This document shows positions 24,080-56,697 of a stretch of 56,697 bases of DNA, piece by piece; positions within the stretch are counted from its first letter, which is position 1; the number at the start of each line of letters is the position of its first letter. The stretch is from a virus (Duplodnaviria > Caudoviricetes). The stretch spans positions 1 through 56,697 of IMG/VR virus record IMGVR_UViG_3300020171_002227; one strand, 5' to 3'. The position numbers and the translations under genes were made by a program. Below the pieces are notes generated by a model. It saw nothing but the letters and a program-made list of their open reading frames with translations. It had not been told where the DNA came from and ran no database searches.

Positions 24080-24080
24080 T

Positions 24081-24218
24081 TTAAAACTCCAAAACTTTAT
24101 TTAATTTTTTATACCATCTATCAACGCAATCATTACACATTGTAGGCGGTAACCAACTTTGAAGTTCATACCAATCTTTATCATATAATATTAAACCGTT
24201 GCATGTATCACATTTCAT
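24081..24218 (-). CDS. Small CxxC…CxxC protein (45 aa, not in ORF track)
   Basis: MKCDTCNG…MCNDCVDRW…; fills the gap between operon genes. Confidence 0.45.
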   Translation of the reverse strand: MKCDTCNGLILYDKDWYELQSWLPPTMCNDCVDRWYKKLNKVLEF

Positions 24219-24224
24219 TTTAAT

Positions 24225-25310: not shown

Positions 25311-25342
25311 TAATAATCTATCCTATAATGCTATAATAGTAT

Positions 25343-27479: not shown

Positions 27480-27480
27480 T

Positions 27481-32051: not shown

Positions 32052-32315
32052 TTCTTTTCATCCATTCTAAACATTGTTGGGTTCTTGCATTCATGTGGTA
32101 AATCCGCTCTTACCATCGTGCAACACCATACGCACCATATATACGGATGATCATTTTCGTATCTAATTCCTACCATATTTATATCCTCACCAATCTTTTT
32201 TTAATAATTTACTTATGTTTTCTCTGCTCGATTTATATTTTAATATAAGTATTCTTGTTTTTTAGTTGCGAGTTCAACTTTATTATTTCTTTTTTACATA
32301 TCGAATAAATATATA

Positions 32316-34674: not shown

Positions 34675-34682
34675 AAAACTAC

Positions 34683-40180: not shown

Positions 40181-40926
40181 CTGTTCTCTAAAAAATAATA
40201 TGATTTATTGAATCTACACATTTACAAACATTTTCATTTATTTCATGTTCCCAAAATCTATAAACAATAAAACCTTTTTCTTTAAGAAGTTTATCACGAA
40301 TTTTATCTTTTTCTATTATATTTGGAAGATTATGCCAATAATCACCATCGCACTCAACGATAATATTATCATTAATTAAAAAATCAACTCTAAATTTTTC
40401 TAACATAGAAACTTGTTCCGTATAATCAATATTACGATTTTTTAACTCTTGTGCAATTTTTTTTTCTATTGATGATGATTTTCCACCTTGATTTTTTCGT
40501 GATGTTAATACAGCCTTACGAGCCCGATTAGACCTTTCTTCTGCATTAAATCTTTCTTTATAGGTTTCTTTTTGTTTTTCGATAATTTCAGGATTATTAA
40601 TATATGTTTGTGTAAGTGTATTTGAAATTTGCTTTATAATTTCAGGATTATCAATATATGTTTGTTTAAGCGTTTCACCTTGTTTAGTTCCCTTATTTTG
40701 AAACTGTTCTGAATTTTTACGAGCAACTAATTGACTATTTCGATATGTTTCATCTTGCCAATTTTCTGTTTTTCTTTTGCTCATTTTTTCTTTATATTCA
40801 GGATGATCTTTAAACAATTTTTTTAACCTTTTTGAAGCAACTTCAAATGATTCATTTCGACCCATAATTATACCTTAAACTTATAAATAAGTATCCCAAT
40901 ATAATTAATCATACTACTTTTTAAAA
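40181..40926 (-). mobile_element. Archaeal bulge-helix-bulge intron (746 nt) in the MCP gene
   Basis: CGGGU/ACCCG exon helix, AGA bulge, GUUU/GAAC 4-bp helix, AUU bulge, 19-bp intron stem; canonical cuts rejoin the frame. Confidence 0.9.
40188..40865 (-). CDS. Intron-encoded Vsr/DUF559-like (PD-(D/E)xK) endonuclease
   Basis: SSIEKKI…VDFL…VECDGDYWH…DKIRD…GFIVYRFWE; basic N-terminal repeats (QTYIDNPEII / QTYINNPEII). Confidence 0.88.
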   Translation of the reverse strand: MGRNESFEVASKRLKKLFKDHPEYKEKMSKRKTENWQDETYRNSQLVARKNSEQFQNKGTKQGETLKQTYIDNPEIIKQISNTLTQTYINNPEIIEKQKETYKERFNAEERSNRARKAVLTSRKNQGGKSSSIEKKIAQELKNRNIDYTEQVSMLEKFRVDFLINDNIIVECDGDYWHNLPNIIEKDKIRDKLLKEKGFIVYRFWEHEINENVCKCVDSINHIIF

Positions 40927-41040
40927 ATAAACACCCGTAGTGGTACTGAGCACTGGACTATCCGCTTTCTGCAATTCAAGGCCACGGCCGTAATAATACT
41001 CTTCCATGTCCTTTACTGTTTTAACATAGTTTCTTACCAT
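40927..41040 (-). CDS. Major capsid protein, exon 1 (38 codons; not in ORF track)
   Basis: AAGGAG RBS; MVRNYVKTVKDMEEYYYGRGLELQKADSPVLSTTTGVY, then TTT TAA if unspliced. Confidence 0.88.
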
Positions 41041-41060
41041 TTCTTTATTTCTCCTTTATT

Positions 41061-41693
41061 TTAATAATGCGCACTATTTGATTTCTGAGAATCAAGCATA
41101 TTTAATTCTTCCCATGACATTTTGCTTATGTCTTTAAATGTTACGCTCGCGCCCTTCTCAATTGGATGTCCGCTATCCACTTTAGGTTTTGCGGTCATTT
41201 GTGAAGGAGTCAATCCCATACCCTTCAATATTTCTTCAACTTGTGATTTAGTGACATTTATGTTTATATCGCTCTTTGAAGGTGAAGATGTTGATGGGGT
41301 TGCGATTGGTGCCGGTGCGGCTGCTGATTGCTGTATCTGATCAGTTGGTGCAGGAGGCATCGGTGGTGCTGCTGGTGCGCCTATCTTGCTAAGAATCTCT
41401 TGTAGTAATGCAAGAATTTGGGACATCGCATCGCCTTGACTAGGAGCGGTCATTTCTTCTGAGCCGTCACCGTTAGGTGCTGGTGCTTCAGGAGGAAAAT
41501 CTGCTTTCTTAGTTTCAGTTCCTTTATCCTCTATTTTTTTACTCGTTCCGCCTAATTTGTCCTCAAGATGCGCTGCATCGGGTGTTGACTCGTTTGGGTC
41601 AAAATCCTTTTCTTCAGCTTTCTTAAGGTATGTGTTTATTTCTGCGGCCGTCTTTCTTAAGTCAGCAACAGAATATTGTTTTAAATCTACCAT
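41061..41693 (-). CDS. Putative capsid scaffolding protein
   Basis: Acidic, P/A-rich low-complexity protein directly upstream of the MCP; C-terminal ISKMSWEEL helix. Confidence 0.65.
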   Translation of the reverse strand: MVDLKQYSVADLRKTAAEINTYLKKAEEKDFDPNESTPDAAHLEDKLGGTSKKIEDKGTETKKADFPPEAPAPNGDGSEEMTAPSQGDAMSQILALLQEILSKIGAPAAPPMPPAPTDQIQQSAAAPAPIATPSTSSPSKSDININVTKSQVEEILKGMGLTPSQMTAKPKVDSGHPIEKGASVTFKDISKMSWEELNMLDSQKSNSAHY

Positions 41694-42518: not shown

Positions 42519-42651
42519 ACTAACAATATAAATTTCATTTATAATATGATAAAAATTAAATTAATCTTCATCAAATGTTGTGAATATACTCAAAAGTAGT
42601 ACAATTACAACTAACAATATAAATTTCATTTATAATATGATAAAAATTAAA
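42519..42651. repeat. 42-bp exact direct repeat (42519-42560, 42610-42651), each containing the late promoter motif
   Basis: ACTAACAATATAAATTTCATTTATAATATGATAAAAATTAAA occurs twice. Confidence 0.9.
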
Positions 42652-43240
42652 ATGATCTAAATTCAACTATATTCTGCATTAATAAAAAGAAAAATGCTAC
42701 AGTATTTATAGGTTCCATATTTCTATTGCGCAATACCGAATGTCCACCATAAAAATGACAACTTTTTGGTATGTAAATTACATCTTCTTTATTGATATGA
42801 TGTGCATTAGAATTTTCAAACCACATATTTAAAGGATTAAAACCTAAATTTCGATTACGTTTATTAGTATATCTTTTATTACCCTCTTTACCTTTAGGTG
42901 TTTTTTGATATTCTTTATTACATCCTTTAAGTTCTTCTTTATTATCTTGATAATATTCTTTAATTTCCTCTTTGTGATTTTCACGATATTTTTTAGAACT
43001 TTCTTTAATTTCCTCTTTATTTTCTTGATAATATTCTTTACGTTTTTCTTTTGTATCTTGATAATATTCCTTTTGATATTTTTTAGAGTGTTCTTTACGT
43101 TTTTCTTTTGTATCTTGATAATATTCCTTTTGATATTTTTTAGAATAGTCTTTAGAGCATTCCTTAGAACAGAACACTTGCGTACTATGCTGGGTTTTAA
43201 ATTCTTTACCACAAATTAAACAATTAAGTATATGTACCAT
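42647..43240 (-). CDS. HNH-like endonuclease with Zn finger and K/E/Y-rich repeats
   Basis: CLICG…FCSKEC; SKKYQKEYYQDTKEKRKE repeat; NAHHINKEDVIYIPKSCH. Confidence 0.65.
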   Translation of the reverse strand: MVHILNCLICGKEFKTQHSTQVFCSKECSKDYSKKYQKEYYQDTKEKRKEHSKKYQKEYYQDTKEKRKEYYQENKEEIKESSKKYRENHKEEIKEYYQDNKEELKGCNKEYQKTPKGKEGNKRYTNKRNRNLGFNPLNMWFENSNAHHINKEDVIYIPKSCHFYGGHSVLRNRNMEPINTVAFFFLLMQNIVEFRSF

Positions 43241-43465
43241 TTATTTAAAATCCACAATATTCAAAACCTTATGTCCAAAATGCTTTAATTCGGTAATTTT
43301 ACTTTCAAGTTCTTCCTTAGTTGCGCCGATAAAATCAATTTTTCCATCTTTCGATTGATAGTTAATTTTATAGGCTTTCTGAATGGCATCTTTAATTATA
43401 TCCATATCGTCTTGTTGTTTTCCGTATGCCACGGAAAGTTGCATATCTAAATCCTTAATGTTCAT
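43241..43465 (-). CDS. Small hypothetical protein
   Basis: ATG 43465 overlaps the zeta-like gene stop (ATGA). Confidence 0.5.
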   Translation of the reverse strand: MNIKDLDMQLSVAYGKQQDDMDIIKDAIQKAYKINYQSKDGKIDFIGATKEELESKITELKHFGHKVLNIVDFK

Positions 43466-44394
43466 AAAATCCTCTTTGATGGTGAATAGGATGAATCCCA
43501 AAGTTCATATTCATCAACTAAATCTTTATATTTCTTTTGCGCTTCATTTATATTATTGCCTTCTTTTGCAATCCAATGCAACGGGATATATCTACCCGTT
43601 GTCATAAATCTCCTTGTTGCGCGAATTATTAATAATTCCACATTTGCCTGCACGGATACAACTTTAATTTTATAGCCAAGTTCTTTTAATCTTGCTATTT
43701 TCTTAGTTTCTTTTTCAACATCTCTCATCGTACCATCAATAATAATATTTCGCCTTTCAGCTAAACTACGTTCAATAAGCCTATCATGAATATCACGAGC
43801 TTCATCATGATACAGCATAGCATTTACACCAGTATATCCCGGTAATCGTTCTTGAATATCATCTGAATTCACATATGTAAAATCGGAACCCTTCACACCC
43901 TTATGTTTTAAAATTGTAGATTTTCCTGATGCTGGTGGACCACCGACTAATAAAGCCGCCGGCGTTTCACCATTTTTAGGTAACGAATTATCACCAATAA
44001 ACTCTTCCATAATTCTTTCATGTAATATTAATCTTTCTGGCGTATATCCACCAGTATTACTATACATGTTTTTTGATGTTCTGCCGTTATTAACGCCATC
44101 TAAAACCTTATATAATTTTGATACATTTGGCATGGAATGTATAGACTCCCACGCATGATCTAAGGTATAAGATATATTTGTTTGTGGTTGCGATTCGGCG
44201 ACTTCCCGTGACTCATAGTATATACCGCCATGTTTACCACGCTGCAATGATACACCTTTAGGCGCATCATTAGCATCTTCAACATAAACTCGTGTTTTTT
44301 TAATTTCAGATTTTTGAACACCGTTAAAAAATTTACTCATGAAGTCATTAATTACTTGTATGTCGTTTTCCTTATAACCTAATTTTGTTTGCAT
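43462..44394 (-). CDS. Zeta-toxin-like P-loop kinase with N-terminal repeated tag
   Basis: GGPPASGKST, VNSDDI, NIIIDGT, RFMTTGRYIP; tag KKTRVYVEDANDAPKG…GKHGGIYYE. Confidence 0.85.
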   Translation of the reverse strand: MQTKLGYKENDIQVINDFMSKFFNGVQKSEIKKTRVYVEDANDAPKGVSLQRGKHGGIYYESREVAESQPQTNISYTLDHAWESIHSMPNVSKLYKVLDGVNNGRTSKNMYSNTGGYTPERLILHERIMEEFIGDNSLPKNGETPAALLVGGPPASGKSTILKHKGVKGSDFTYVNSDDIQERLPGYTGVNAMLYHDEARDIHDRLIERSLAERRNIIIDGTMRDVEKETKKIARLKELGYKIKVVSVQANVELLIIRATRRFMTTGRYIPLHWIAKEGNNINEAQKKYKDLVDEYELWDSSYSPSKRIL

Positions 44395-45266
44395 CAGAAT
44401 ACCCCCATTTCCCGTAATATATTTAATCTTCCCTCTTTATATTTATATCTATCAGATGTTATGGTATCAGTAGGATATAAATATCTATTTGGTATCTTCG
44501 CTTGACTTCCCCCAACAATTTGCCTATAATCTTCTGCTAATATTTCATCCAAACTTTCGTACATTGCATTTAAACTTACACCATAATGCATTTGTACATA
44601 TTGCGCATACTTTTTAAATTTCTCATACTCAATTTTTTGAAATTCTAATTGTGTTTTTATATCTTTAAAGTTTATAAATTTATGTACTTTGGTATGTCCG
44701 ACTTCATGAATAATTGTAACGGCTCGTTTATCCTCAGTTATAAAGGATAGTTCTTCAGGTGTATAATTTGCTTCCTTTAAAATATCTTTTAACTCATCCA
44801 CCCATTCAGCATACTCGTGTTCAGATGTCGCAGGTAAATAAATATTTGTGGGATCATTAGATGATACAAAAGCAAATGCATTCGATATATTTAAGGGTAA
44901 TAAATTAAGTGTGACTCCACCCAAATCAATATTATGTTTCTTAATTAATCCATTTATATACTCTATTGATGTTGGTGCCGTGGAAGTATATTCATCATCA
45001 CCCATCATTAACATCACGTTTAAAAACTTTTGTGAATCTACAAATATGGTTTCAACACGGTTTTTTACTTGTTGTGCGGCAGGTTTAGACCTTTCCATGT
45101 CATCACTTATATAATACTGGCCGCCACGTTTACCTTCTTGTAGTTTAGCGCCCGGCGGTGCTTCAGCGGGATTTTTTACATAAACTTTAGCTTTTTTAAT
45201 TCGTGTATTGAATGATTTAATCCAATCGGCACTTTCACCACCAATATCTAAAATTATTGTTTTCAT
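44394..45266 (-). CDS. Zincin-like metallopeptidase with N-terminal repeated tag
   Basis: IIHEVGH…EILAEDY; tag KKAKVYVKNPAEAPPG…GKRGGQYY. Confidence 0.7.
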   Translation of the reverse strand: MKTIILDIGGESADWIKSFNTRIKKAKVYVKNPAEAPPGAKLQEGKRGGQYYISDDMERSKPAAQQVKNRVETIFVDSQKFLNVMLMMGDDEYTSTAPTSIEYINGLIKKHNIDLGGVTLNLLPLNISNAFAFVSSNDPTNIYLPATSEHEYAEWVDELKDILKEANYTPEELSFITEDKRAVTIIHEVGHTKVHKFINFKDIKTQLEFQKIEYEKFKKYAQYVQMHYGVSLNAMYESLDEILAEDYRQIVGGSQAKIPNRYLYPTDTITSDRYKYKEGRLNILREMGVF

Positions 45267-46519
45267 GGTAAATCTCCAACATCTTGGTCATGAAATCTAA
45301 GTTCAACGTTTCGACAATACACTTCCCTATCTTCACCAATCGTTAATATTTCTCGTTCATTTCCCATATATGCATGTGACATAAATGTTGACCAAATTTT
45401 ATCTTTTGGTATTTTTGTACTTAATATAAAACCATGTAATTGTTGGCTACCTGCAAACTTTTCCGCAACTTCGGGTTTTAATGTCCATGAACTTAATGAA
45501 TTAGATTTAACCAAAACCTTATTTTCATCTGACTCTACATCATATCCATTTATTAAATTAAATTCCTGTCGTGTTGTTCCCCTATAGATAGTAATTTCAT
45601 TGGTGTTAGGAAACATTACATCTAAAAATGATCTTGTTAATTGTTTTTGTATTTTAACATAATTATCAACTAATTCTTGCGGATATTTTCCGTGTAATTC
45701 TTGAAGTTTAACATCTATATCCTTTACCGCATCATGATATCTAATTTCGCCACCAAATTGTCTTTTAATTGAATCTTTTAATAATAATGCTAAATCAGAT
45801 GAACTTGATTGTTCCCAATCCTCTTTTGATTCTTCATGAAATTCAACATATTTACCATCATACAACATATTATAAAATTCATTTGTTGCTTCAATTACTA
45901 TTGTACTTTTCATATCATTTTTCATTATGTCATTAACATAATTTTTAAATTGTTCATTTAAATCAATTTTTCCAGTTTTATTAAAATTATCTATAATTGG
46001 CGTTAAAAATCTAACAACAGGAAGTCTTTTTGTTACAATATTTGTAAAATCTACAAATTGCGTAGCATTTAAACGACTATACTTTCCAGTATCTATTATA
46101 TTCTTAATAAATTCTAATCCACTTAAATCAATTCTATATGCAATTTTTGTATTAACGCCAACATCAACATCATTATTATATAACATTATATGTAACCCAT
46201 TTTGATCAATTCTTTCAGCAACTTTTTGACGCACTATTGGCTCTTTATCATTAATCAATTTATGTAAATGTTCCATATCACATTTATGGGCCGCTAACCA
46301 CCGAATATTAGTATCAGTATCACTAGTAAAAAAATTTATAATTTTTATATCATTTGTATGTTGTAAAACAAATTTACGCTCATCATATGCTCTATTTTTT
46401 AATTCATCACCACTACCATCATCTATTTTTTGTCTATATACAGATTCAAATGATATCGGTTGTTTATATTTACTTGGATATATTGATGATGATAGAGGTT
46501 GAATTGTCTTACCCCTCAT
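45263..46519 (-). CDS. Putative ADP-ribosyltransferase (R-S-E type) with N-terminal HEAT/LRV-like repeats
   Basis: IYRG…LSSWT…VAEKFA…NEREIL; DTNIRWLAA / DKEPIVRQKVA repeats; first ATG at 46519. Confidence 0.65.
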   Translation of the reverse strand: MRGKTIQPLSSSIYPSKYKQPISFESVYRQKIDDGSGDELKNRAYDERKFVLQHTNDIKIINFFTSDTDTNIRWLAAHKCDMEHLHKLINDKEPIVRQKVAERIDQNGLHIMLYNNDVDVGVNTKIAYRIDLSGLEFIKNIIDTGKYSRLNATQFVDFTNIVTKRLPVVRFLTPIIDNFNKTGKIDLNEQFKNYVNDIMKNDMKSTIVIEATNEFYNMLYDGKYVEFHEESKEDWEQSSSSDLALLLKDSIKRQFGGEIRYHDAVKDIDVKLQELHGKYPQELVDNYVKIQKQLTRSFLDVMFPNTNEITIYRGTTRQEFNLINGYDVESDENKVLVKSNSLSSWTLKPEVAEKFAGSQQLHGFILSTKIPKDKIWSTFMSHAYMGNEREILTIGEDREVYCRNVELRFHDQDVGDLP

Positions 46520-46610
46520 AATAATGACCACCTTGCGGACATTCTTCAATCTTTACACCTTTTGGCGCATCAGAAGGATTTTTCACATAGACTTTAGCTT
46601 TGTGTATCAT
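46509..46610 (-). CDS. 33-aa tag-only ORF, out of frame with the downstream ART-like ORF (not in ORF track)
   Basis: MIHKAKVYVKNPSDAPKGVKIEECPQGGHYYEG*; ATGA overlap with the upstream gene. Confidence 0.75.
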   Translation of the reverse strand: MIHKAKVYVKNPSDAPKGVKIEECPQGGHYYEG

Positions 46611-46984
46611 AATTCACGCAAAACTTTATTTCCATTACTATTTAAATGGTATACCGTTTTATGTTTGTCCGTTCGACTATCGATTAAATTTAATCGCCCC
46701 AACGCTTTTAATGAATCAACCATACCCGAAGAAGACATTTTATCGTTCTCTATAGTAATGTCACCACTTCTAAAATAACCTAAAACTTGTATATCATGAT
46801 GGCTTAAATCGAGATGTATTAAAGACTTCTTAATATTATCTGGATGTATCTCAATGGTCCAACTTCTTAGAATATCTCCAGTCTCATCATCAAAAGCAGA
46901 TATCTTCAAGAATTTAGCAGACATAATATCGCTTACTGGTATGCCCTGTGAGTTTAAATATCTTTCGGTTTTCATTTCAACCAT
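46607..46984 (-). CDS. Hypothetical protein (possible C-terminal winged helix)
   Basis: 125 aa; LKALGRLNLI…YHLNSNG. Confidence 0.5.
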   Translation of the reverse strand: MVEMKTERYLNSQGIPVSDIMSAKFLKISAFDDETGDILRSWTIEIHPDNIKKSLIHLDLSHHDIQVLGYFRSGDITIENDKMSSSGMVDSLKALGRLNLIDSRTDKHKTVYHLNSNGNKVLREL

Positions 46985-49900
46985 TTCCTAACAACATATT
47001 TCTTAAAAAATGACCATTTTAATGGATGATTTGCCGCTAATTGCGTTAAAGACGCGCGCTTCGCATCATCACTATATCTTAAAATTCGATCGACCGTTTG
47101 ATAGAATTCAGCAAAAGTTTCACCATTATTTCTATTTGCGTATTCTTTACTTTGATACCCCTCTGTCTGCCAAATATCCAACCATTCATTACGCAGAGTG
47201 TTGGATTTAAATTCCTGTTTCATCAACATTCGATATTTCTTCCATTGCTTTTCTTCGAACAACGTAATATTTAAATCGCGGTTTTCTTTTAACCGATGCA
47301 AAATACCATACAACGCACCATATCCTTTATCGTAATATGTTAGTGCATTTGTATGCATATCCACCATAAGACCTAATTCTCGCGCATAATTAATATCATC
47401 TAATATTTTTTCTATGTTTTCAGAACTAATTAATACTTTATGTGTTTTAAGTATTTCGACCATTTTACGATAATCATCCACACTATCAATATCCGCAATA
47501 CCTTTGATTGATGGATCGGGTATTGCATCAACACTACTCATCATTTGTTTATAAACAAAATGTCCAACTTCATGATGTATAATTCCCGCCATTTCATAAT
47601 CATCATAAATGTGTATTTCATTTGAAACATAATCAGCACAGCCACCATAAGTTGAAGTATGATCTTTACCCTCACGATCTTTCCAATTAAATTCCCTAAT
47701 GTAAGTTTTACCTAAAAATTTTATTACTGGTTTGTCGCTTTTTAAAGATGAATATTTAAATGACTCAGAACACTCTATAACCTTATTACCAATATCTGTT
47801 GGTAAATCATTAGCACTAACTAATATCCGTGCCGCATTCATATCAAAAACATCATACTTATCAGACAATTTTGTAATATCATTATATATTTCTGTTGAAC
47901 CTTTATAATATGGTGTCGCTTTTAATTCATCATAAGTTTGTATTTTTTGTGGTTCTATAATATCTGATTGATTTTCTTTTGGTGCTTCGGGTTTTGTTTG
48001 TGATGCTTCAGTTTCATAATAATGTCCACCATGTTTACCTTCTTGAAGTTTTGCTCCCGGTGGTGCTTCAGCAGGATTTTTAACATAAACTTTTGCTTTT
48101 TGAATATTACTTTCATTCAACCAATCATGAACTATTTTATATTGTTCTGGAGATTCATTTTTTAATTGTTCTGGTGCAATTATATAAAAAGTTGCAAGTC
48201 GTATTAAACCTTCAAATTCATCTCCACCATAATTAATATTTTTTAATTTATTTATTGCTTCATGTCCACGTTGTGCATCATTTGTGAAACGTTGATGAAA
48301 ACCCTCATGTATAGCAGTTTCTATCATTTGTGGAACCTTTCGTTTACTTTCTAAATATTGACCATTTAATATTGGATCTTCACCCATTGGTGCGGGTTTC
48401 CAAGCAAGAGTGCTTGATTTATATGTGTTTGGTTCTACAAATACCACCCCCTGAGCAAAATGTCCCAAATTAGATTGCGTATCAGTATATAATTTTAATT
48501 CTTTAATTCTTCCTTGCGATACTTCGGATGCTAATAATTGACCAATTTTAGATAATTCACTCACATCTTCTATTTTTTCTGATTGAGATAATAAATTATT
48601 TATTTTATTATTATTTTGTTCGGATGTTATTGGTGATATATTTGATGGTAAACTTTCGTAATAATGTCCGCCATGTTTACCCTCTTGAAGTCTTACGCTA
48701 GGTGGCGCATCGGAAGGTTGTTTTACATAAATTTTTGCTTTTTGAACTTTTTTATTATCTAATTTTTCTTCAGTTCGAACCATCTCAGCATGTTCTTTTG
48801 CTGTTAACGGTTTTCTAGAACCATCGGGTGCAACAGATTCTTCCGTATCATGATCTATTAATAGTCCACCACGGTATGTTACATATTTATTAATTTCAAT
48901 AGCATATAATTGTTTATGTGCATCTTCTTTAGTTGGATGTGTTCCTAATTTTTTGCCCGCCTCAGAATAAACACAAAATTTATCACCGCATTGACGAATA
49001 TATTTCTGTATGGGAATCGCTTTGACTAATGCCTTACCGATATTTGATCTTAAATAATCCATATACTTATCGGGTATGTCTGATACCCACACAAAATCTG
49101 GATCGTGTTTTTCTTCAACATTTCGCCACGCATTCCATAATCGCGCAACAATATTATCGCCGCTGGTGTGCGATGTATTCATAAAATTATCAATGGCAAT
49201 AACTTTATCTTTACGATCTTTAACTTGCGCAAAAATGTTTTGTACTTTTTTCACATTATCCGCAACTTCTTTATGTTCTGCTCTAAATTCTGGCAAACGC
49301 ATTACAGTATCTTTATCTGTAAGATTTCTTGCCGCCCACGCATAAAAGTTATAGACTTCAGGTAATCGTTTATCGATAAAATCAAAACTTCTATTTATTT
49401 CTTCATCATTTGCGGTGCCGGTAGATATTTTAGTATAAACATTAAGTAAATCTTTTAATTCTCGACCTTCGCGCCATTTATCCATTCTATTATAAGATTC
49501 ATTGCCGATAACATCTTCTAAACTCTTAACTTTTATTTGTGGTGGTTTTTTCTCACTTTCGGTATTAACCACACCACGTAAATAATCCATGTATTGTTTA
49601 GCCGTACGTTCAATGAATGAAAATTCACGACCGGTATCCCATAATTCAAGCCATAGAGTGGCAATTATATCTAAACCTGATGTGTGTGCCGTACCGATAA
49701 AATTATCAATCGCGATAGTTTTATCTTTACGATCTTTAGCTTGCGCAAATTCATTAATTAATTTTTTAATATTTTCTGCAATTTTTCTATGTTCTAATGC
49801 ATAGACCATATCAGGCGCAAGTACTTCGTCTTCCCGACCTTCAAAATAATACATTTGATATATTTTTGGTAAATTAGTTTGTATAAATTGAAAATTTCGA

Positions 49901-50685
49901 TTTATATCTTGATCAGTTGCTTTACCACTAGATATTTTTGCGTATGTTTCAAGTAAATCTTTTAATTCACGGCCTTCTTTAAACGTCTCCATATGCGCAT
50001 AAGAATCATTACCTACAACATCTTGTAAACTCTTAACATCCATTTTAGGCGCTTTTTGTTCGCGCTCAATCTGTTCACGTTTACTTTTATTACCAATCTC
50101 TTCAGTTTCGTAATACTTACCGCCTTTCTCACCGGTATAGACGTGTGAACCTTGCGGCGCATCCGCAGGATATTTAACATAAACTCTGGCTTTCTGAACT
50201 TTAATTCCTTTGGCTAATTTGTTTACGGAATCGATCAACGCTTCTTGGTTTGCCGGAGTTTCTACAATCGACCACTCCCAGTTTTCGATTCCGGTGAGGT
50301 TATTATAGCAGCCACGCTCTTGATCACATACGGGCGTCTTATCCGTAGCACGTCCTCCAAGTGAAAACCCGGTATATTGCTTATCAAGTATAGCTTGCCA
50401 GGTTTTATGATCGGTTTCATAATTACTAAAAATTTCAGCAGTAAGATAAAGTCCGGGTTGACCGCTGGGTGCCGTCTTATACTCAAACGCAACAATACGC
50501 CCCACGGGGTGATTGCTATGGGAATCGATTACTGGCGCGCCTCTCGCCATAAATATTTCCATAATACCACGATCACGGAATTCAGTTAATACATCAATGT
50601 AATCATTTTGGCGATCTACCACGGATATACTTCCCCACCCGCTGAAGAGTCTGCGATTTACATTATCTTTATTAATATTAACCAT
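46972..50685 (-). CDS. Prohead protease (HK97-type) fused to multiple cargo domains
   Basis: N-terminal FSGWGS…VDRQND…HSNHPVG…YTGFSLGG…EWSIVETPAN; then three tags, a duplicated domain and two HExxH domains. Confidence 0.88.
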   Translation of the reverse strand: MVNINKDNVNRRLFSGWGSISVVDRQNDYIDVLTEFRDRGIMEIFMARGAPVIDSHSNHPVGRIVAFEYKTAPSGQPGLYLTAEIFSNYETDHKTWQAILDKQYTGFSLGGRATDKTPVCDQERGCYNNLTGIENWEWSIVETPANQEALIDSVNKLAKGIKVQKARVYVKYPADAPQGSHVYTGEKGGKYYETEEIGNKSKREQIEREQKAPKMDVKSLQDVVGNDSYAHMETFKEGRELKDLLETYAKISSGKATDQDINRNFQFIQTNLPKIYQMYYFEGREDEVLAPDMVYALEHRKIAENIKKLINEFAQAKDRKDKTIAIDNFIGTAHTSGLDIIATLWLELWDTGREFSFIERTAKQYMDYLRGVVNTESEKKPPQIKVKSLEDVIGNESYNRMDKWREGRELKDLLNVYTKISTGTANDEEINRSFDFIDKRLPEVYNFYAWAARNLTDKDTVMRLPEFRAEHKEVADNVKKVQNIFAQVKDRKDKVIAIDNFMNTSHTSGDNIVARLWNAWRNVEEKHDPDFVWVSDIPDKYMDYLRSNIGKALVKAIPIQKYIRQCGDKFCVYSEAGKKLGTHPTKEDAHKQLYAIEINKYVTYRGGLLIDHDTEESVAPDGSRKPLTAKEHAEMVRTEEKLDNKKVQKAKIYVKQPSDAPPSVRLQEGKHGGHYYESLPSNISPITSEQNNNKINNLLSQSEKIEDVSELSKIGQLLASEVSQGRIKELKLYTDTQSNLGHFAQGVVFVEPNTYKSSTLAWKPAPMGEDPILNGQYLESKRKVPQMIETAIHEGFHQRFTNDAQRGHEAINKLKNINYGGDEFEGLIRLATFYIIAPEQLKNESPEQYKIVHDWLNESNIQKAKVYVKNPAEAPPGAKLQEGKHGGHYYETEASQTKPEAPKENQSDIIEPQKIQTYDELKATPYYKGSTEIYNDITKLSDKYDVFDMNAARILVSANDLPTDIGNKVIECSESFKYSSLKSDKPVIKFLGKTYIREFNWKDREGKDHTSTYGGCADYVSNEIHIYDDYEMAGIIHHEVGHFVYKQMMSSVDAIPDPSIKGIADIDSVDDYRKMVEILKTHKVLISSENIEKILDDINYARELGLMVDMHTNALTYYDKGYGALYGILHRLKENRDLNITLFEEKQWKKYRMLMKQEFKSNTLRNEWLDIWQTEGYQSKEYANRNNGETFAEFYQTVDRILRYSDDAKRASLTQLAANHPLKWSFFKKYVVRKWLK

Positions 50686-50712
50686 TTTTAATCTCTCGTA
50701 TCTATCATTATC

Positions 50713-50726
50713 AATTTCATTTATAA
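50713..50726 (-). promoter_or_regulatory. Putative late promoter motif TTATAAATGAAATT
   Basis: Exact copy upstream of the protease gene; back-to-back with a + strand TATAAATACTA at 50755. Confidence 0.7.
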
Positions 50727-50786
50727 ACTATAATAAATTTAATAGTAGAAAACTATAAATACTAATAAAACAATATGTAAACTACT

Positions 50787-51191
50787 ATGATAGCAAAAAA
50801 TGAACTTATGGAAGGAATAGAAATTTCAAAACCGTGTTGGGAACTTGAATATTGTCCATATGGCGCTTTAGTAGAAAATTCTGAACCAAAAGAAGAATTA
50901 ACAAGAGATACATGTTCAGTATTTGGACATATTTGTCCAGTATTTTCCTATGCAGAACCATTTATTGATGATGAAAACATTTATGATTTTGTAAAATTTA
51001 TTTCAATACCGGAACATGAATATCTTGTGGTTCCAATTGAAATAATGAATGAATATCCTGATGTAGAAAAAAGTATAAGTGAATATTCCTGGGAAGACGA
51101 TGGTTATTGGTATCTCGAAGAAGATAACGATGCAGAAATATTTATAAATGCTGCCAAGATAGATACCAATGAATTAGAAGTAATTGAGTAA
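50787..51191 (+). CDS. Acidic Cys-containing hypothetical protein
   Basis: KPCWELEYCPYG…CSVFGHICPVF; own TATA motif. Confidence 0.65.
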   Translation: MIAKNELMEGIEISKPCWELEYCPYGALVENSEPKEELTRDTCSVFGHICPVFSYAEPFIDDENIYDFVKFISIPEHEYLVVPIEIMNEYPDVEKSISEYSWEDDGYWYLEEDNDAEIFINAAKIDTNELEVIE

Positions 51192-51193
51192 AT

Positions 51194-51730
51194 TTATTTA
51201 CTCATTCTTTTTTTAATAATTTGTCCCGCTTTGGATTTTCCTTCATTGAATGCTGGTCGCATAAAAGGTTTCGGTTCCGTACCTTTTATTGCCATATTTT
51301 TTGCAATCGACCACGCAATACCTAAAATATCCGCGTTATAAGATTTACCATTCAACATGGTGTTTTTATTTTTGCGATAAGTCAACTTTAAGTCTGTTTT
51401 CTTGCGCCACAACCACGAATAAATTGCATCTATTGGCGGGAAATGTGGTGAGCTACCGAATTCTACGTAGCCGGCGTACAGGGCGCTATAACCTATTTCT
51501 TTATGTAAAAATTGTTCCTTGTCTACCACTAACGAATTTGCCAAGAAACCAGTATCGAAAGCGCCGTCTTCATCTCGTAAATTAGAATCGGATGTCGTAC
51601 CTATATAATCCGCAATATCGTTTAAGGCTTGATCCGATTTCTTCTCAATTGCTTTTTTAATTGCATCATATAATTTAATATTATTATCAAGTTTAATTAT
51701 CAATTTAGGCATCATAAGTATGTTTTTCAT
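51194..51730 (-). CDS. HK97 gp10-like neck/tail-completion protein
   Basis: DTGFLANSL…YAGYVEFGS…GTEPKPFMRPAF. Confidence 0.85.
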   Translation of the reverse strand: MKNILMMPKLIIKLDNNIKLYDAIKKAIEKKSDQALNDIADYIGTTSDSNLRDEDGAFDTGFLANSLVVDKEQFLHKEIGYSALYAGYVEFGSSPHFPPIDAIYSWLWRKKTDLKLTYRKNKNTMLNGKSYNADILGIAWSIAKNMAIKGTEPKPFMRPAFNEGKSKAGQIIKKRMSK

Positions 51731-51924
51731 TTTTAGAGCGATAACTATAAATACTCACAAGTACTTAGTAAGTTATTATGTCAGACATCAAATCAATACT
51801 CATTCATCTAACAAATGATGAATACAATTGTCTGATAGAAATAAAAGACAAACTAAAAATGTCATGGAAAAGATTATTAATATATCCATTCCATGATAAT
51901 ATAAAAACAAAGGAGAAATAAACA

Positions 51925-52320
51925 ATGGTAACAACAGTAGCAGGCGTTCACAATGGTGGCGCAGTATCAGTAGTATATAGCTTCCCAGTTAATGGTGAAG
52001 TTGCAATTGGGCAGACAATGATCAAATATACAGGAATGTTCCCGTCAGAGGAATCACTTCTGTCAATGGTTCGTGCAGAAACGAATTGTAAACAGACAAT
52101 GATTGTCTCCGCCGTGGTCGTTGATCAGGCATATCGTGAGAATAACTATACCTGTCCATCAGCACAGTTTATGGACGGCACTGAAGCTCCAGTAGAAGCC
52201 AAATATACAACCAATCACTATGAAGCCGCGAGACCAACAGTTCTTATGAATGGATTTAGTGTAAAAGCAAAAGTCCTTGGAATGAGACAGTTTGAAGTTA
52301 GTGGTGCTGGAAAAAACTAA
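51925..52320 (+). CDS. Hypothetical protein
   Basis: 131 aa, strong AAGGAG RBS. Confidence 0.65.
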   Translation: MVTTVAGVHNGGAVSVVYSFPVNGEVAIGQTMIKYTGMFPSEESLLSMVRAETNCKQTMIVSAVVVDQAYRENNYTCPSAQFMDGTEAPVEAKYTTNHYEAARPTVLMNGFSVKAKVLGMRQFEVSGAGKN

Positions 52321-52355
52321 TAGGGGAACAAGGATCGACACCGTCCACCAATAAG

Positions 52356-52646
52356 ATGGTGGAGGTTAAATCCCCAGAAGTCCCTATTGTAAAGGAGATC
52401 CCGACAATGATAGCACCAGATAACGCAGAATGTCCCAATAATGCAGACTATCCCGAAGAAAAAATAGTAGAAGAACATAACCCCAATTATGTGCCACTGT
52501 ATTTCTCAGCAATAGTATTTGCTCTTATCATACTCAGTTATATATACTGTGCTATGACAGGGCTTGAAGTCAATCTGTATAGAGAAATTGGTGCTATTAG
52601 CATCTCTGGAATAATTACAGCCGCATGCTGGTATCTGAATAAATAG
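52356..52646 (+). CDS. Membrane protein with two C-terminal TM segments
   Basis: Acidic P-rich N-terminus followed by hydrophobic helices. Confidence 0.55.
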   Translation: MVEVKSPEVPIVKEIPTMIAPDNAECPNNADYPEEKIVEEHNPNYVPLYFSAIVFALIILSYIYCAMTGLEVNLYREIGAISISGIITAACWYLNK

Positions 52647-52671
52647 AGTAAACTCTATTTATTATTTTTTT
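52638..52671 (+). terminator. Hairpin plus T tract
   Basis: AATAAATAGAG-TAAA-CTCTATTTATT followed by ATTTTTTT at the gene end. Confidence 0.6.
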
Positions 52672-53046
52672 CATAATTGTGAGGAAATATGAAAGTATAT
52701 CGCATATATATAGATATTTCAAATAAAAATGCAGCAGAAGAAATTTTGTTAGAATTTAATGAAAATTCTCAAGCACGATGGCACATGCTTGAATTAGATA
52801 CAGATACAAAAGAACAAACAAGAATTATTTAAATGAGGAATAAAAATGGATATATATAATTTCATGAATCAAAAATTATCCGCTGCAAAACGTAAAGAAA
52901 AAACTAATATAAACTTTCCATATTTAAATAGATTAATGGAAACAAGTACACAAAAATAGTCAGAAAAATCTATCGCGGAATGTAATTTTTTTCAATTTTT
53001 TCTTAATCAATAACTATAAATACTATTAAGATTAATATAACAATTA

Positions 53047-53379
53047 ATGATAAAGAATAAATCCTTAATTGTTATAATAATCATATTAGTATTATGTGAT
53101 ATTACAACAACTATAGTAGGTTTAAATATGGGATTAGTTGAATCTAACGTTATTACCCTTCAATTCTTAAATCAATTTGGAAATATTACCGGTCTTATTA
53201 TATCATCAATCCTGAAATTATCATTATTAATTGGAACTATATTAATAATTAATAAATTCAATATCATTATACCGCAAACGATCAAAAGTATTTGCATTAA
53301 CACCATCTTAATTATTGTAATAATTACAACATCACAAGCAATTTTAAATAATATCTTGTTAATTATAGTACTATTATGA
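53047..53379 (+). CDS. DUF5658-like membrane protein
   Basis: DITTTIVGLNMGLVESN motif, three hydrophobic helices, own TATA motif. Confidence 0.65.
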   Translation: MIKNKSLIVIIIILVLCDITTTIVGLNMGLVESNVITLQFLNQFGNITGLIISSILKLSLLIGTILIINKFNIIIPQTIKSICINTILIIVIITTSQAILNNILLIIVLL

Positions 53380-53815
53380 GATGGTAATACTTTACTATCA
53401 ATATAGAAAGGTATAAATACTATAAAGACTAATATAGGATTGAGCGTGATAAAACATGATAGAACTAAATCTGGAGATAGCAAAAGAACTTGCGCGAATG
53501 AACACGAACTATCAGGAAAATATATTTCCTATAATTCAACTACTCATGACAAGTAGGGCGGCGATGTAAAATGTCAACTAAAGCGAATGTAAAATCAAGA
53601 ACTAGAAAGACTCACACAAGAATACACAACCATCTTACTTTAAGTAAAACAGGATATAGACCGACAGGCACTAATACTACTGTAAATATTAAAATCGCTA
53701 AAAGAGGATAATCATGATCACAATAGAACAAATTAAAAAAAACCTATTACAAAATTGCGCTAATATGTCATTAAATATTTGTCCTGATTGTCCATCGAAA
53801 AAACAATGTTGTAAA

Positions 53816-54532
53816 TTAGCATATCAAAGATTTAATTCCAGAAATTAAATCTTCTTTTATTTTAGCTAATTTTCCACCTTTCTTTTTTAATTTATTATGA
53901 CATTCTAAACAATATGTAATTCCGTTATTTAAATCCCATAATATTTCACAATTTAAAGCATCTTCTATTTTTGTAATATTATATTCTTTAATAATTTCTT
54001 TGCGTGATTTAATATGATGAACTTCTAAATATGTTCCACGAATATTACAACATTGACAAGTAAAATTATCTCTTCCGAATATCTGGAATCTCCATTCTTT
54101 ATATTTATCAGAATTTCTTATTATATTATTCAATGTTGAAATACCGCCTTTCCAATTTGAAGATTTATCTCCTATAAGTAATTTAATAGCTTCAGATATT
54201 TTTCTTTTATGTTCTTCAGATTTTGGTTTACCTTTATGAATTTTAGATATTTTTTTTCGAGTTTCTTTAGATATTTCCCTTTTAGCTTCAGACATTTTTC
54301 TTTTAGTTTCTTCGGAAAGTATTTTACCTTTCTCACTTTCAGATATTTTTCTTTTAGTTTCTTCGGAATGTTTTTTACCTTTAAAACCATTATGTTCATT
54401 ATGTCCATTAATATATTTAGGTATGCCATCATATTTATGTGACGATTTTATAATAATTTCACCTTCACACCCGCAAGCGCAAATTATTTTAGGTTGACCA
54501 TCTTCTAACCATTTTATATAAGATGGATGCAT
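53816..54532 (-). CDS. Free-standing HNH homing endonuclease with NUMOD3 repeats
   Basis: CACGC, KHSEETKRKIS, RDNFTCQCC…LEVHHI…NGITYCLECH. Confidence 0.88.
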   Translation of the reverse strand: MHPSYIKWLEDGQPKIICACGCEGEIIIKSSHKYDGIPKYINGHNEHNGFKGKKHSEETKRKISESEKGKILSEETKRKMSEAKREISKETRKKISKIHKGKPKSEEHKRKISEAIKLLIGDKSSNWKGGISTLNNIIRNSDKYKEWRFQIFGRDNFTCQCCNIRGTYLEVHHIKSRKEIIKEYNITKIEDALNCEILWDLNNGITYCLECHNKLKKKGGKLAKIKEDLISGIKSLIC

Positions 54533-54534
54533 AT

Positions 54535-56697
54535 CTAAAACGCCCGAACGACGCCCGACCTACAGTTCGGGTGAGCAACCCAATTACGATATTCCCACTT
54601 AGGACCGTTATTTTTTACGCTCATTTCCTTAACGATAGAATTTAAACGGTCTAAACTAACACCTTTACCATTTCCCTCTAATTCAACTTGCTTTGCGATA
54701 TCCATACACGTTTTAGACGTTCGAGAATCACTTTTTACTGCCCACTTATATAAATTCTCACTATCGGGATCACTCTTTTTGAATGACATCTCTCTACCCG
54801 TCATCGCGGCTGCATGAACTTCGGTTTTCGCTATACGTTCCAGACGATATTTCTCAATATCTCCCGCTTCCCGCATCTCTTTTACCATATTTTGTGTAGA
54901 AAATGTCTTAGGATTTTTAAATCCAGCAGTAATGATCTCATTCATGCGTCCAGAAGTGGATTTTGATAAATTTTCATAAGAATCCCATAACGTATGACGA
55001 TCCGTAATCGATTTTAACGCCATAACATCAATTTTACTAAAATCTATCGCTTTTCCGACAAGTTCACCAACATATCTCTGACCTTCACGGTATGACATCT
55101 CAAGATGCCTACGAGTATGCGCTTCCATTTTGTAAATGGCATCATCCAAACATTTTTTAACAAAACGCTCTTGCTCTGCACCCGCAAATTTATCGGTACT
55201 ATTAAGTATTTTAGCAATTTCTTCTTCAAAAATTTTATTTAATTCATTTTTGAATTTTTTTACTTGATATGTGTCAGCTTCTTGCCCGTCATACTTTAGA
55301 ATTTCAAGTTCATCATCGTGGTTTTTTTTTAACTCAATGAACTTATCTTCCATCTTCTGTATATTAATGTTTATACTACGTCCACCAGCTTTATCCACTT
55401 CTTCAGGCTCGTCTCCAAGCATATCTCGATAGTTTGTATGCAAGCGTTGAATAAGTTGCCTGGTTTCGCTTAAATCGCTCTGTAACGATATCGAATGACC
55501 CGGATTTATATCTTTTGATTGCTTATATTCTTCAAGTAAGTTATCATAATGTTCGGTGGTATTATGTAATAACGCCTCAATACGTTTTCGCTTATTTTCG
55601 TCCGTTCTTGGCTGTAAATGTTGCATCGGGGTAGGTTTTTGCGTATCATAATAGTAAGATCCTCGTGGACTTCGCAACACTTTAACGCCCTGCGGCGCTT
55701 CTTTTGGATGTTTTACATAAATTCTTGCCTTTTGAATGCCCATTTTGATATCGCTATCATTAAAAGTGTCATTTTCATTACCTTGTTCTGGATTTGATGT
55801 AAATCCACCACCGGGTTCGTTAACACCACCATCGGGATTACCGAATCCGCCGGCACTTTGATCTTGCGACTCACCAGAATACTTAAAATCAAACACATCT
55901 TCTTCACCGAGATCAACCTTGAAGCCCATTTGCAACATTGATTGTGCAATACCAACTTTTGTCTGTTGTTCGTTCAATTCTCGCTGCTTATTTTCTTCAA
56001 ATGGCGATTGTAATACATATTTCCAATCGTTGACATTCAACCAATGTAATAATTCAGGCATTATATGATCGTTATATACTGCTATTCCTGATTCGGCAGC
56101 CATATTTGTAATATCAATTTGTGTTGAATCAGCATTAAGCCCGCCCGCACCCGCGGTATCACCAATAAATATATTCGTAACACCATACATGGACGCAATA
56201 GTCCTTCGGATTTCATCACGCACTGGTATATACTGCATTTCTTCAAGCGTATCCATGAACTTTATGAATTCCATACCCGATCCTGTCCCATTGCCCTCAC
56301 CCTCTAGGAACATTTTAGGGATATAATGCGGATCTTTATTTAATTTATCGTCAACATCTTTCCAAAATTCATACGCCGAATCAGGATTAGATGTTTTCAT
56401 GGCAAGAACGCCTTTAGGTAAATGTGCTTCGCTATATGATCGATAAATATACTCAACCATATTAGTTAATGTTAATGTATATTGCCACAATGTAACTATG
56501 GGCGAGAAACCATAAAGACTGCTAGGGGAGTATTTCGAATTACCACACCAAATATGAACGCCATTTCTTCTGACCATTATAACACTATTAGGTACGGTAC
56601 AACAGTAGACTTTTCCATTGTAATTTAATTTATTAATTACTTTAGTTTTAATTCCTGGTTCACCAGAATATTTTATAGTATCTATACCGGATATATT
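54535..56697 (-). CDS. Portal protein fused to a MuF-like head morphogenesis domain (5'-truncated, intein-containing)
   Basis: Frame is open to the window edge; LYGFSPI…PKGVL…EMQY…IASMYGV portal motifs; C-terminal RIAKTE…DSRTSKTC…HPNCRS (MuF). Confidence 0.85.
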   Translation of the reverse strand, partial: NISGIDTIKYSGEPGIKTKVINKLNYNGKVYCCTVPNSVIMVRRNGVHIWCGNSKYSPSSLYGFSPIVTLWQYTLTLTNMVEYIYRSYSEAHLPKGVLAMKTSNPDSAYEFWKDVDDKLNKDPHYIPKMFLEGEGNGTGSGMEFIKFMDTLEEMQYIPVRDEIRRTIASMYGVTNIFIGDTAGAGGLNADSTQIDITNMAAESGIAVYNDHIMPELLHWLNVNDWKYVLQSPFEENKQRELNEQQTKVGIAQSMLQMGFKVDLGEEDVFDFKYSGESQDQSAGGFGNPDGGVNEPGGGFTSNPEQGNENDTFNDSDIKMGIQKARIYVKHPKEAPQGVKVLRSPRGSYYYDTQKPTPMQHLQPRTDENKRKRIEALLHNTTEHYDNLLEEYKQSKDINPGHSISLQSDLSETRQLIQRLHTNYRDMLGDEPEEVDKAGGRSININIQKMEDKFIELKKNHDDELEILKYDGQEADTYQVKKFKNELNKIFEEEIAKILNSTDKFAGAEQERFVKKCLDDAIYKMEAHTRRHLEMSYREGQRYVGELVGKAIDFSKIDVMALKSITDRHTLWDSYENLSKSTSGRMNEIITAGFKNPKTFSTQNMVKEMREAGDIEKYRLERIAKTEVHAAAMTGREMSFKKSDPDSENLYKWAVKSDSRTSKTCMDIAKQVELEGNGKGVSLDRLNSIVKEMSVKNNGPKWEYRNWVAHPNCRSGVVRAF
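56539..56697 (-). mobile_element. C-terminal end of an intein in the portal protein
   Basis: YNGKVYCCTVPNSVIMVRRNGVHIWCGN followed by Ser(+1): intein blocks F and G. Confidence 0.88.

Follow-up and report, generated by a model that had tools for sequence, protein, structure and literature searches.

Known systems for loading proteins into virus heads

In phage T4, the capsid targeting sequence (CTS), a peptide of about 10 residues at the N-terminus, is unstructured and is removed by gp21. The cargo-loading peptides of encapsulins, which are C-terminal, unstructured and about 10 residues long, serve a cellular nanocompartment without portal or DNA. According to passages of PMC3012670, the CTS is all that the T4 internal proteins, a diverse set of defence proteins, have in common, and it encapsidates them into the scaffolding core. 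In phage P1, DarA attaches to the inside of the capsid, and the prohead protease removes an N-terminal piece of it (passages of PMC12810830). Polyvalent proteins are reported to be scarce in archaea (parts of PMC5512222). The present analysis concerns a stretch of 56,697 nucleotides from a virus of the Caudoviricetes (IMG/VR record IMGVR_UViG_3300020171_002227, positions 1 to 56,697; referred to here as the window), an IMG/VR provirus with a CheckV completeness of 61%, in whose head genes a module of 32 amino acids is repeated seven times. As judged from its sequence, this module is a real, conserved, portable and widespread domain family.

Seven copies of the module in the window

A strict regular expression applied to the six-frame translation of the 56,697 bases gives exactly 7 full module matches and 0 elsewhere, all on the minus strand. 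When the peptide of a mini open reading frame (mini-ORF) is used as the query in a six-frame search of the record, 7 of 7 candidates are the same seven places (E 2.8e-21 to 3.6e-7), in agreement with the seven repeats claimed in the preliminary description of this DNA. The copies are as follows.

55645..55737, minus strand: linker between portal and MuF, residues 318-354 of P0007
50107..50199, minus strand: copy 1 of the polyprotein, directly after its N-terminal prohead protease domain, residues 160-197 of P0006
48655..48747, minus strand: copy 2 of the polyprotein, before the first HExxH domain (regular expression, six-frame and profile matches)
48013..48105, minus strand: copy 3 of the polyprotein, before the second HExxH domain (regular expression, six-frame and profile matches)
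46512-46610, minus strand: copy in the mini-ORF (46509..46610; six-frame match and translation)
45111..45200, minus strand: copy near the N-terminus (residues 20-57) of a HExxH protein of 290 amino acids (regular expression, six-frame and profile matches)
44212..44304, minus strand: copy near the N-terminus (residues 27-65) of a zeta-toxin-like kinase (regular expression, six-frame and profile matches)

All 7 copies lie between the portal and capsid genes, as expected from the earlier claim that they sit in head-module genes. Their alignment (A1) contains 8 invariant columns (K, Y, V, A, P, G, Y and Y) with 63% mean column identity. The copies are under purifying selection, as the ratio of non-synonymous to synonymous differences (pN/pS, Nei-Gojobori counts) lies at 0.19-0.62 across the 21 pairs and never reaches 1. 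The copies at 48013-48105 and 45111-45200, for which synonymous divergence and selection on the peptide had been proposed, share 27 of 32 residues and are separated by about 9 synonymous and 6 non-synonymous changes (pS 0.42, pN 0.08), which bears the proposal out.

Family size, consensus and database status

The profile of the 7 copies, searched against 1.84 billion cluster representatives, matches 581 proteins at E<=1e-3, 100 at E<=1e-10 and 7 at E<=1e-30. Among the best 150 matches, which were examined further, one is the window's own kinase and 148 of the 149 others contain at least one module by local hmmsearch, while P0115 (3223 amino acids) contains none and was dropped. At a domain E<=1e-3, these 148 proteins carry one copy (56 proteins), two (75), three (14), four (2) or five (1), and the 261 instances give the consensus [ILV]xK[AS][RK][VI]Y[VI]xxPx[ED][AV]PxGxxVQxGPRGGxYY[E][TS], where K (221/261), Y (252/261), P (251/261), two G and YY are near-invariant. 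A wider alignment (A3) used in a word-index search yields 85 proteins at E<=1e-5 among 7999 scored candidates, with source names such as 'phage head maturation protease', 'DNA topoisomerase I' and 'zeta toxin [Haloarcula virus HCTV-16]', along with proteins of a Halobacteria metagenome-assembled genome (MAG) and of marine-sediment metagenomes; one of the matches contains PF18760 (ART-PolyVal).

No Pfam family covers the module in P0001-P0007 (E<=0.1) or in the 148 matched proteins (E<=1e-4), no NCBIfam model covers it in 12 proteins (E<=0.01), and a search of PDB sequences with the module reaches a best E of 0.61, which is no match; a known domain with an unrelated role, looked for because it would have undermined the preliminary description, was thus found in none of the three. 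The named domains of polyvalent proteins (LPD1-40 and others) include no Pfam LPD match to the module. PHROGs holds it only as positions 17-54 of phrog_24083 (1233 positions, function unknown), and a search of the ESM Atlas with P0035 gave no usable match. The family is previously unnamed and uncatalogued; the module is not named in the literature reached by topic-word searches, which cannot find a motif by sequence and have supplements outside their scope, so that a prior description is possible.

Domain neighbours and order

In the 148 proteins, the head-assembly domains identified by Pfam beside the module are Phage_portal, Peptidase_S78 / XkdF, DUF5661 and DUF192. The enzyme domains comprise topoisomerase IB, ADP-ribosyltransferases (ARTs) of exoenzyme and DRAT types, RelA_SpoT, GNAT, S-adenosylmethionine (SAM) lyase, zeta toxin and NUDIX, together with the poly(A) polymerase head, an ATLF-like peptidase, a PI3/PI4-kinase-like domain, DNA ligase and rubrerythrin. 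Several are combined in one protein, as in portal-SAM lyase-RelA, TopoIB-NUDIX and GNAT-ART.

The order of module and neighbour was tallied in 51 matched proteins with coordinates entered by hand, leaving out overlapping clan matches, HEAT, partial GAF and intein/LAGLIDADG domains.

ART: module upstream in 13/13
topoisomerase IB: module upstream in 7/7
RelA-SpoT: module upstream in 5/5
SAM lyase: module upstream in 4/4
GNAT: module upstream in 6/7
portal: modules downstream only, 5/5
protease: modules downstream only, 4/4
DUF192: modules downstream only, 3/3

Within head-gene clusters, the order of the module relative to anchor and cargo domains is thus strict. The first module starts within the first 60 residues in 77 of the 148 proteins, many other copies being internal, and stand-alone cargo proteins have a leader of 10-40 amino acids before it. 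The earlier statement that each copy precedes a different domain is true only with exceptions, since two copies of the window precede paralogous zincins and tandem pairs elsewhere stand at the extreme C-terminus. DUF192 (COG1430) recurs in the N-terminal anchor place otherwise taken by portal or protease, followed by modules and an ART or TopoIB (P0108, P0113, P0147 and positions 547-2586 of L020, a contig described below).

Predicted structure and charge

The AlphaFold2 model built from A3 (57 rows) has a mean predicted local distance difference test (pLDDT) value of 74 and of 86-88 in the core, with the three strands KAKVYV, LQE and HYYETE. The module is accordingly predicted to be a three-stranded beta-meander between acidic disordered linkers, and the structure prediction of the module alone, which the preliminary description had suggested, gives no match to a known fold. 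Fold searches with the single-module model reach a best E of 3.1 in the PDB by Foldseek and a best Z of 2.6 in the VIA wide search, while those with a tandem-pair model reach a best E of 0.95 in the PDB by Foldseek and nothing at Z>=2 in the VIA wide search.

The tandem-pair model (alignment A4, 7 rows; pLDDT 80, predicted template modelling score (pTM) 0.68) has an N-terminal helix packed before the first module. Its fold matches in BFVD all come from archaeal viruses, namely HVTV-1 gp116, R4TLX6 (1293 amino acids) and three 'uncultured archaeal virus' proteins, one of which is named XkdF-like protease. The BFVD model of an 84%-identical HVTV-1 protein differs from the tandem model by a root-mean-square deviation (rmsd) of 13 A (template modelling (TM) score 0.51), and the packing of the two tandem modules is for that reason not reproducibly predicted. 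A complex prediction of two module copies (A3) scored 0.00 with controls not run, and it is evidence neither way.

The cores have a mean net charge of 0.03 (range -8 to +9), with 47% positive and 44% negative, while the flanks are rich in E, D, G, S and P and are acidic, with net charges of -2.7 and -3.4 per 30 amino acids. A proline-rich stretch in the N-terminal part of the capsid protein (41346-41378) was considered as a ligand of the module and rejected, as it is not conserved in HVTV-1 gp120.

Genes of the window carrying or adjoining the module

The genes that carry or adjoin the seven copies, with the two zincin-type motifs of the polyprotein, are as follows.

54535-56697, minus strand, open at the window end: portal fused to a MuF/SPP1-gp7-like domain (phrog_18178 1.5e-32; PF04233 2e-5; TIGR01641 7.8e-7)
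46972..50685, minus strand: polyprotein of 1237 amino acids (phrog_9427 1.6e-11; TIGR01543 4.4e-4; Pfam S78 0.0085, below its cut-off)
48295-48309, minus strand: first HExxH of the polyprotein, HEGFH
47560-47577, minus strand: second HExxH of the polyprotein, HHEVGH
46607..46984, minus strand: protein of 125 amino acids just upstream of the mini-ORF (P0005), whose N-terminal domain has two modules joined straight to it in P0039 of another virus
45263..46519, minus strand: DRAT-like ART, read from an internal ATG (PF07357 7.3e-9)
44394-45266, minus strand: HExxH protein of 290 amino acids (HEVGH motif)
43462-44394, minus strand: zeta-toxin-like kinase (PF06414 8.2e-24)
43241..43501, minus strand: ORF of 86 amino acids downstream of the kinase, whose homologue P0116 has a module at its C-terminal end

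The polyprotein consists of an HK97-type protease, a module, two repeats of about 170 amino acids (47% identical), a DUF5661-like 'KFCVYS...AIE' motif, a module, a zincin-like domain, a further module and a second zincin-like domain. With this protein (P0006) as the query, a relative was not found among viral contigs. The stretch 'INKYVTYRGG' (residues 598-604; 48874-48894, minus strand), right behind the 'KFCVYS...AIE' motif, looks like a decayed module start by its sequence; in another sequence (L010), a full module stands directly behind the same motif.

The HExxH protein aligns to the C-terminal zincin unit of the polyprotein with 70 of 202 residues identical (E 5e-18), which on this sequence evidence makes it a paralogue of the last unit. 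The copies at about 48050 and 45150 therefore do not front unrelated cargo, as had been proposed for them. By our own count, 33 of the 70 identities fall within the first 60 alignment columns, where the module sits, which indicates that the module is far better conserved than the duplicated domain behind it; for P0002 against the last unit of the polyprotein, the module is 84% identical and the remainder of the alignment about 26%.

The mini-ORF of 33 codons ends in tat tat gag ggg taa, and the ATG of the ART gene (46517-46519) overlaps this end in the next frame, beside a GGGG run at 46512-46515. In L008, a close relative of the window, the orthologue is a single frame of 430 amino acids holding a module (28/32 identical to the mini-ORF) and the ART (69.8% over 341 amino acids). 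By this comparison the mini-ORF is the start of the ART gene, split off through a frame change of one base in the GGGG run, and its description as a free-standing module gene is not upheld. The groundwater metagenome run X1 holds the best DNA match to the window and may be its source, whereas the runs X2-X6, with small shares, were left out as evidence of habitat. A Logan contig of X1 spans the junction (45933-47100) without a gap, so that the frame change is reproduced in that assembly, which may share the window's sample and in which contigs hide minor variants; its origin may be a mutation, an assembly artefact or programmed frameshifting at GGG-TAA. A variant contig of the same run (record 3) matches the window from 46894 down to 46516, the end of the module in the mini-ORF, continues with about 470 unrelated bases and rejoins at 46011, the module end thus behaving as a breakpoint of recombination or divergence.

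Genomic context in relatives and haloviruses

The capsid protein of the window (39203-40141) is 39.5% identical to residues 130-457 of HVTV-1 gp120 (E 1e-60), while its portal matches gp112 (31%, E 1.5e-31) and its MuF protein gp114 (27%, E 9e-18). As capsid, portal and MuF are all homologous to those of HVTV-1, the head module of the window belongs to an archaeal tailed-virus lineage. By sequence, this homology speaks for relatedness of the head modules, not for membership of Druskaviridae, the HVTV-1 group.

When 50,697 phage records were searched by tblastn, a single window copy found no match, longer multi-copy queries being needed, and the multi-copy queries matched only the Haloarcula viruses HVTV-1, HVTV-2, HCTV-1, HCTV-5 and HCTV-16 (7 and 8 records). 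These are the sole cultured viruses in which the module was found, and it lies within their clusters of head genes. In HVTV-1, all copies fall in genes 113 (weak), 115 ('zeta toxin', N-terminal) and 116 (two in tandem at the C-terminus), which lie between the portal (112) and MuF (114) genes on one side and the protease (119) and capsid (120) genes on the other. Genes 115 and 116 correspond to one gene (114) in HCTV-5, and there the zeta/ParB protein itself ends in the tandem pair.

L008 contains 7 copies in the same gene order as the window, with the polyprotein encoded by one gene in the window and by two in L008, the second of which starts about 20 amino acids before a module. Such fission or fusion of genes just upstream of a module, also seen between HVTV-1 115/116 and HCTV-5 114 and between P0005 and P0039, implies that module and cargo move together.

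L011, a contig of 7.7 kb binned in a Candidatus Pacearchaeota MAG, carries five consecutive genes each led by a module, which encode two ART-like proteins, one unknown protein, a zeta-kinase-protease fusion and a long acidic protein. The ORF after the protease in this contig (module and long acidic region) was considered as a homologue of HVTV-1 gp119 and rejected, since its match to the C-terminal part of that protein appeared only once composition correction was switched off and is unreliable. L020, from a genome of the same phylum, encodes a module-TopoIB-MuF protein beside an intein-bearing XkdF/S78 protease and a DUF192-ART protein, and modules were found in 3 of the 401 genomes of that phylum searched. 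In L009, too, the module stands in a context of MuF, portal and head genes. For the virus of the window, a DPANN host is plausible.

The suggested search with a profile of the 7 copies thus returned diverse cargo behind modules in hundreds of proteins, confined to head modules wherever the context is visible. Wide occurrence in non-virion proteins, which was looked for in the window, L008, L011, L020 and HVTV-1, was seen in none of them. Copies from the same virus are more alike (0.538, 38 pairs) than copies from different viruses (0.448, 152 pairs), a difference reached by 2 of 2000 label shuffles; this fits weakly with a partner shared within each virus, and ancestry or amino-acid composition could also explain it.

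Possible function of the module

The anatomy of these proteins, in which a short helix, the beta-meander, an acidic disordered linker and the cargo follow one another behind head-assembly anchors, is as expected of an address label for head-internal proteins. We favour tentatively, at slightly less than even probability, that the module is a docking label for such proteins combined with release in the linkers. In this reading, a self-contained domain of about 32 residues, often following a short helix, would direct proteins of archaeal tailed viruses into the head during its assembly. The beta-meander, held by acidic disordered linkers, would present a conserved face (Lys, Arg/Lys and three Tyr) that may be recognised in the procapsid by the same receptor for all cargo, with the scaffold, the protease-scaffold polyprotein and the N-terminal region of the capsid protein as the most likely candidates. 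Whatever domain follows the module, be it an ART, zeta kinase, zincin, topoisomerase IB, RelA-SpoT, GNAT, SAM lyase or MuF domain, would thereby be built in, and the flanking linkers would then be cut by the head protease or by zincins, freeing the cargo for ejection with the DNA. Cleavage in the linkers is expected because effectors fused to the portal must be freed to leave the particle and because the polyprotein contains both a head protease and zincins. We infer, in this scheme, the binding to a procapsid receptor, the identity of that receptor, the linker cleavage, the presence in the virion and the injection.

Several observations weigh against the docking label. A targeting tag is redundant on fusions to portal and protease, yet modules are always present there in the order tally; 11 of the 148 proteins end in a module, and halovirus proteins end in a conserved tandem pair that no domain follows. 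L008 retains only the N-terminal half of the first polyprotein module, and the ART gene of the window is out of frame with its module, so that either the tag is dispensable for the ART or the gene is decaying. One portal-bearing match of A3 is labelled as a Bacilli MAG, which makes the restriction to archaeal viruses uncertain, and a known binding fold was not matched in the fold searches, the domain being too small for that to prove a new fold.

The main rival, which we consider unlikely, is a junction for proteolytic release, where the module is recognised by the prohead protease or the co-encoded zincins for cutting polyproteins in the head, and packaging is provided by fusion to portal or protease or by the short N-terminal leader. 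The module does stand at each junction between an anchor (portal, protease or DUF192) and cargo as well as between successive cargo domains, portal-fused effectors need to be cut off to leave the virion, and the polyprotein of the window starts with a protease and has two HExxH domains. Iyer et al. infer that zincin-like peptidases process polyvalent proteins (PMC5512222), the fragment that P1 DarA loses to the prohead protease is N-terminal and of about 9 kDa (passages of PMC12810830), and the leader of 10-40 amino acids of stand-alone cargo proteins could be the removed part. However, a folded domain of 32 residues kept across haloarchaeal and low-GC viruses exceeds the known needs of head-protease sites, its most conserved segment (KxRVYV) is a predicted beta-strand inside the fold and would be a poor substrate, and the tandem pairs at C-termini separate nothing.

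A co-assembly hub, in which modules bind each other and cargo with a single module collects around the polyprotein (3 copies) and the 12-fold portal to form one internal body, is improbable. It would account for the valency by role, with 3 copies in the polyprotein and 1 per cargo protein, and for the tandem pairs kept in at least 6 proteins (P0064, P0083, P0117, P0127, P0139 and HVTV-1 gp116), since tandem duplication is common for pairing domains; the tandem model, with the pLDDT and pTM given above, is also in its favour, but the disagreement of its packing with the BFVD model counts against it.

Somewhat less probable again is that the module binds nucleic acid or another ligand and tethers internal proteins to the packaged genome so that they leave together. 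The candidate conserved surface of Lys, Arg/Lys and three Tyr would suit this, many partners act on DNA or nucleotides (topoisomerase IB, ligase, ParB and SAM lyase), and MuF/gp7-type proteins are fused next to the module, but the cores are on average neutral, 44% of them are negative, and their flanks are acidic. Generic DNA binding is therefore unlikely, and it cannot explain loading, because the head proteins of tailed phages are incorporated before the DNA enters. The preliminary description had proposed a packaging or DNA-binding tag; by analogy with known loading signals the packaging part is plausible, being supported by a module that is portable, selected as a peptide and upstream of interchangeable effectors, while the DNA-binding part is disfavoured by the neutral core and acidic flanks. 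An inert structured spacer, a small stable fold spread by recombination that separates domains in long virion proteins, has equally little probability, for although modules do stand between many unrelated domains and between disordered linkers, several of their residues are near-invariant (K, Y, P, two G and YY), their order relative to cargo is strict, and single-domain cargo proteins, which need no spacer, have the module at the N-terminus.

A more far-reaching form of the docking label, which on present sequences is possible and yet doubtful, is a universal loading code in archaeal tailed viruses (haloarchaeal, DPANN-associated and marine), where one folded 'address domain', a single procapsid receptor and cleavable linkers would be shared by the portal, the protease-scaffold and every ejected effector. 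If so, effector genes could be swapped between viruses by moving the unit of module and cargo, and any protein could be loaded by adding 32-50 residues. If docking holds, the module is also a possible tool for loading proteins into archaeal virus capsids. As an uncatalogued family of hundreds of members, it flags candidate virion-delivered effectors in archaeal viruses and gives a sequence handle for candidate anti-defence and host-takeover enzymes in archaeal viromes, while HVTV-1 on Haloarcula is a cultivable system carrying the module, which makes the claim of head-protein selection testable.

Other features of the window

The capsid frame 39203-40141 (minus strand), which matches gp120 residues 130-457, has no start codon at the homologous beginning, and an ORF of 210 amino acids at 41061-41693 (minus strand) resembles gp120 (about residues 100-115) at its end. 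The two capsid frames are separated by a DUF559/MTES_1575 endonuclease gene (40188-40865), and L008 has the same layout with flanks 94-95% identical. From these sequences, the major capsid gene (39203-41693, minus strand) appears to be split by an endonuclease-bearing intron or similar insertion.

The N-terminal part of the portal at the cut end of the window (56533-56640, minus strand) has an intein-like end, in which residues 20-55 match the RNR-intein part of phrog_12229 (...VHIWCGNS). The related portals P0124 and P0030 hold LAGLIDADG/Hom_end inteins, and L020 has inteins in the protease and in a neighbouring gene.

Six homing-endonuclease genes of the NUMOD3 type (2883-3494, 16783-17409, 22417-23175, 30687-31388, 33904-34674 and 53816-54532) and further endonuclease genes of the HNH (42647-43240) and DUF559 (40188-40865) types are present. 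The homing-endonuclease genes are scattered over the replication, tail, glycosylation and head modules at an unusually high density, and a high density is likewise reported for HVTV-1 and HCTV-5 (PMC3950731).

A sugar/modification block of 14 kb (21380-35936, minus strand) lies between the tail and head genes and encodes four GT1/GT4 and one GT2 glycosyltransferases, a NAD-dependent epimerase/dehydratase (GDP-mannose dehydratase-like), a PfkB kinase-cytidylyltransferase fusion, two B12-binding radical SAM enzymes and methyltransferases. An island of four small plus-strand ORFs (50787-53379; 134, 131, 96 and 110 amino acids), none with a family match, stands between the portal gene and the protease gene, and a gp10/Neck1-like gene (51194-51730) is encoded inside it on the minus strand.

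Comparison with known systems

The module has a local likeness to the WW domain, which is a three-stranded meander of about 35 residues, in its P-x-G ... G-[RK]-x-Y-Y pattern. Identity with WW domains was considered and gained no support: no Pfam WW match is obtained at E<=0.1, a tandem-WW entry is reached by Foldseek only at E 1.3 with a TM score of 0.23, fold searches with so small a model yield nothing significant, and the signature tryptophans are absent. The cargo-loading peptides of encapsulins resemble the proposed label in being short and portable and in docking varied cargo on the inner face of a shell with the HK97 fold.

Polyvalent and MuF-fused effectors of phages and conjugative elements, as described in parts of PMC5512222, have the same cargo (ART, GNAT, RelA-SpoT, zeta kinase and zincins, with methylase and helicase neighbours), combine several disparate activities in one polypeptide, as does the polyprotein of the window with its protease and two HExxH domains, and are linked to MuF, portal and head genes, as are the modules of the window, L020, L009 and HVTV-1. 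The abstract, the section on LPD domains and passages of that source, however, name no comparable junction module. The P1 Dar proteins (DarA, Hdf and DarB) are similar in being large defence-countering proteins loaded into the head (passages of PMC12810830), but their loading depends on dedicated helper proteins and protein-specific N-termini, with no repeated shared domain, and they have no sequence relation to the module.

By analogy, the T4 CTS is the nearest precedent for the module, as it is a short shared N-terminal element before diverse defence-related proteins of the prohead core, which are ejected (passages of PMC3012670), and is linked to the head protease. In contrast to the CTS, the module is a predicted fold of 32 residues that is also internal, present in several copies, found on portal and protease and sometimes C-terminal, with no sequence relation between the two. 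The module system thus differs from these precedents in being a folded, repeated domain that is also carried by the portal and the protease and that occurs in archaeal viruses.

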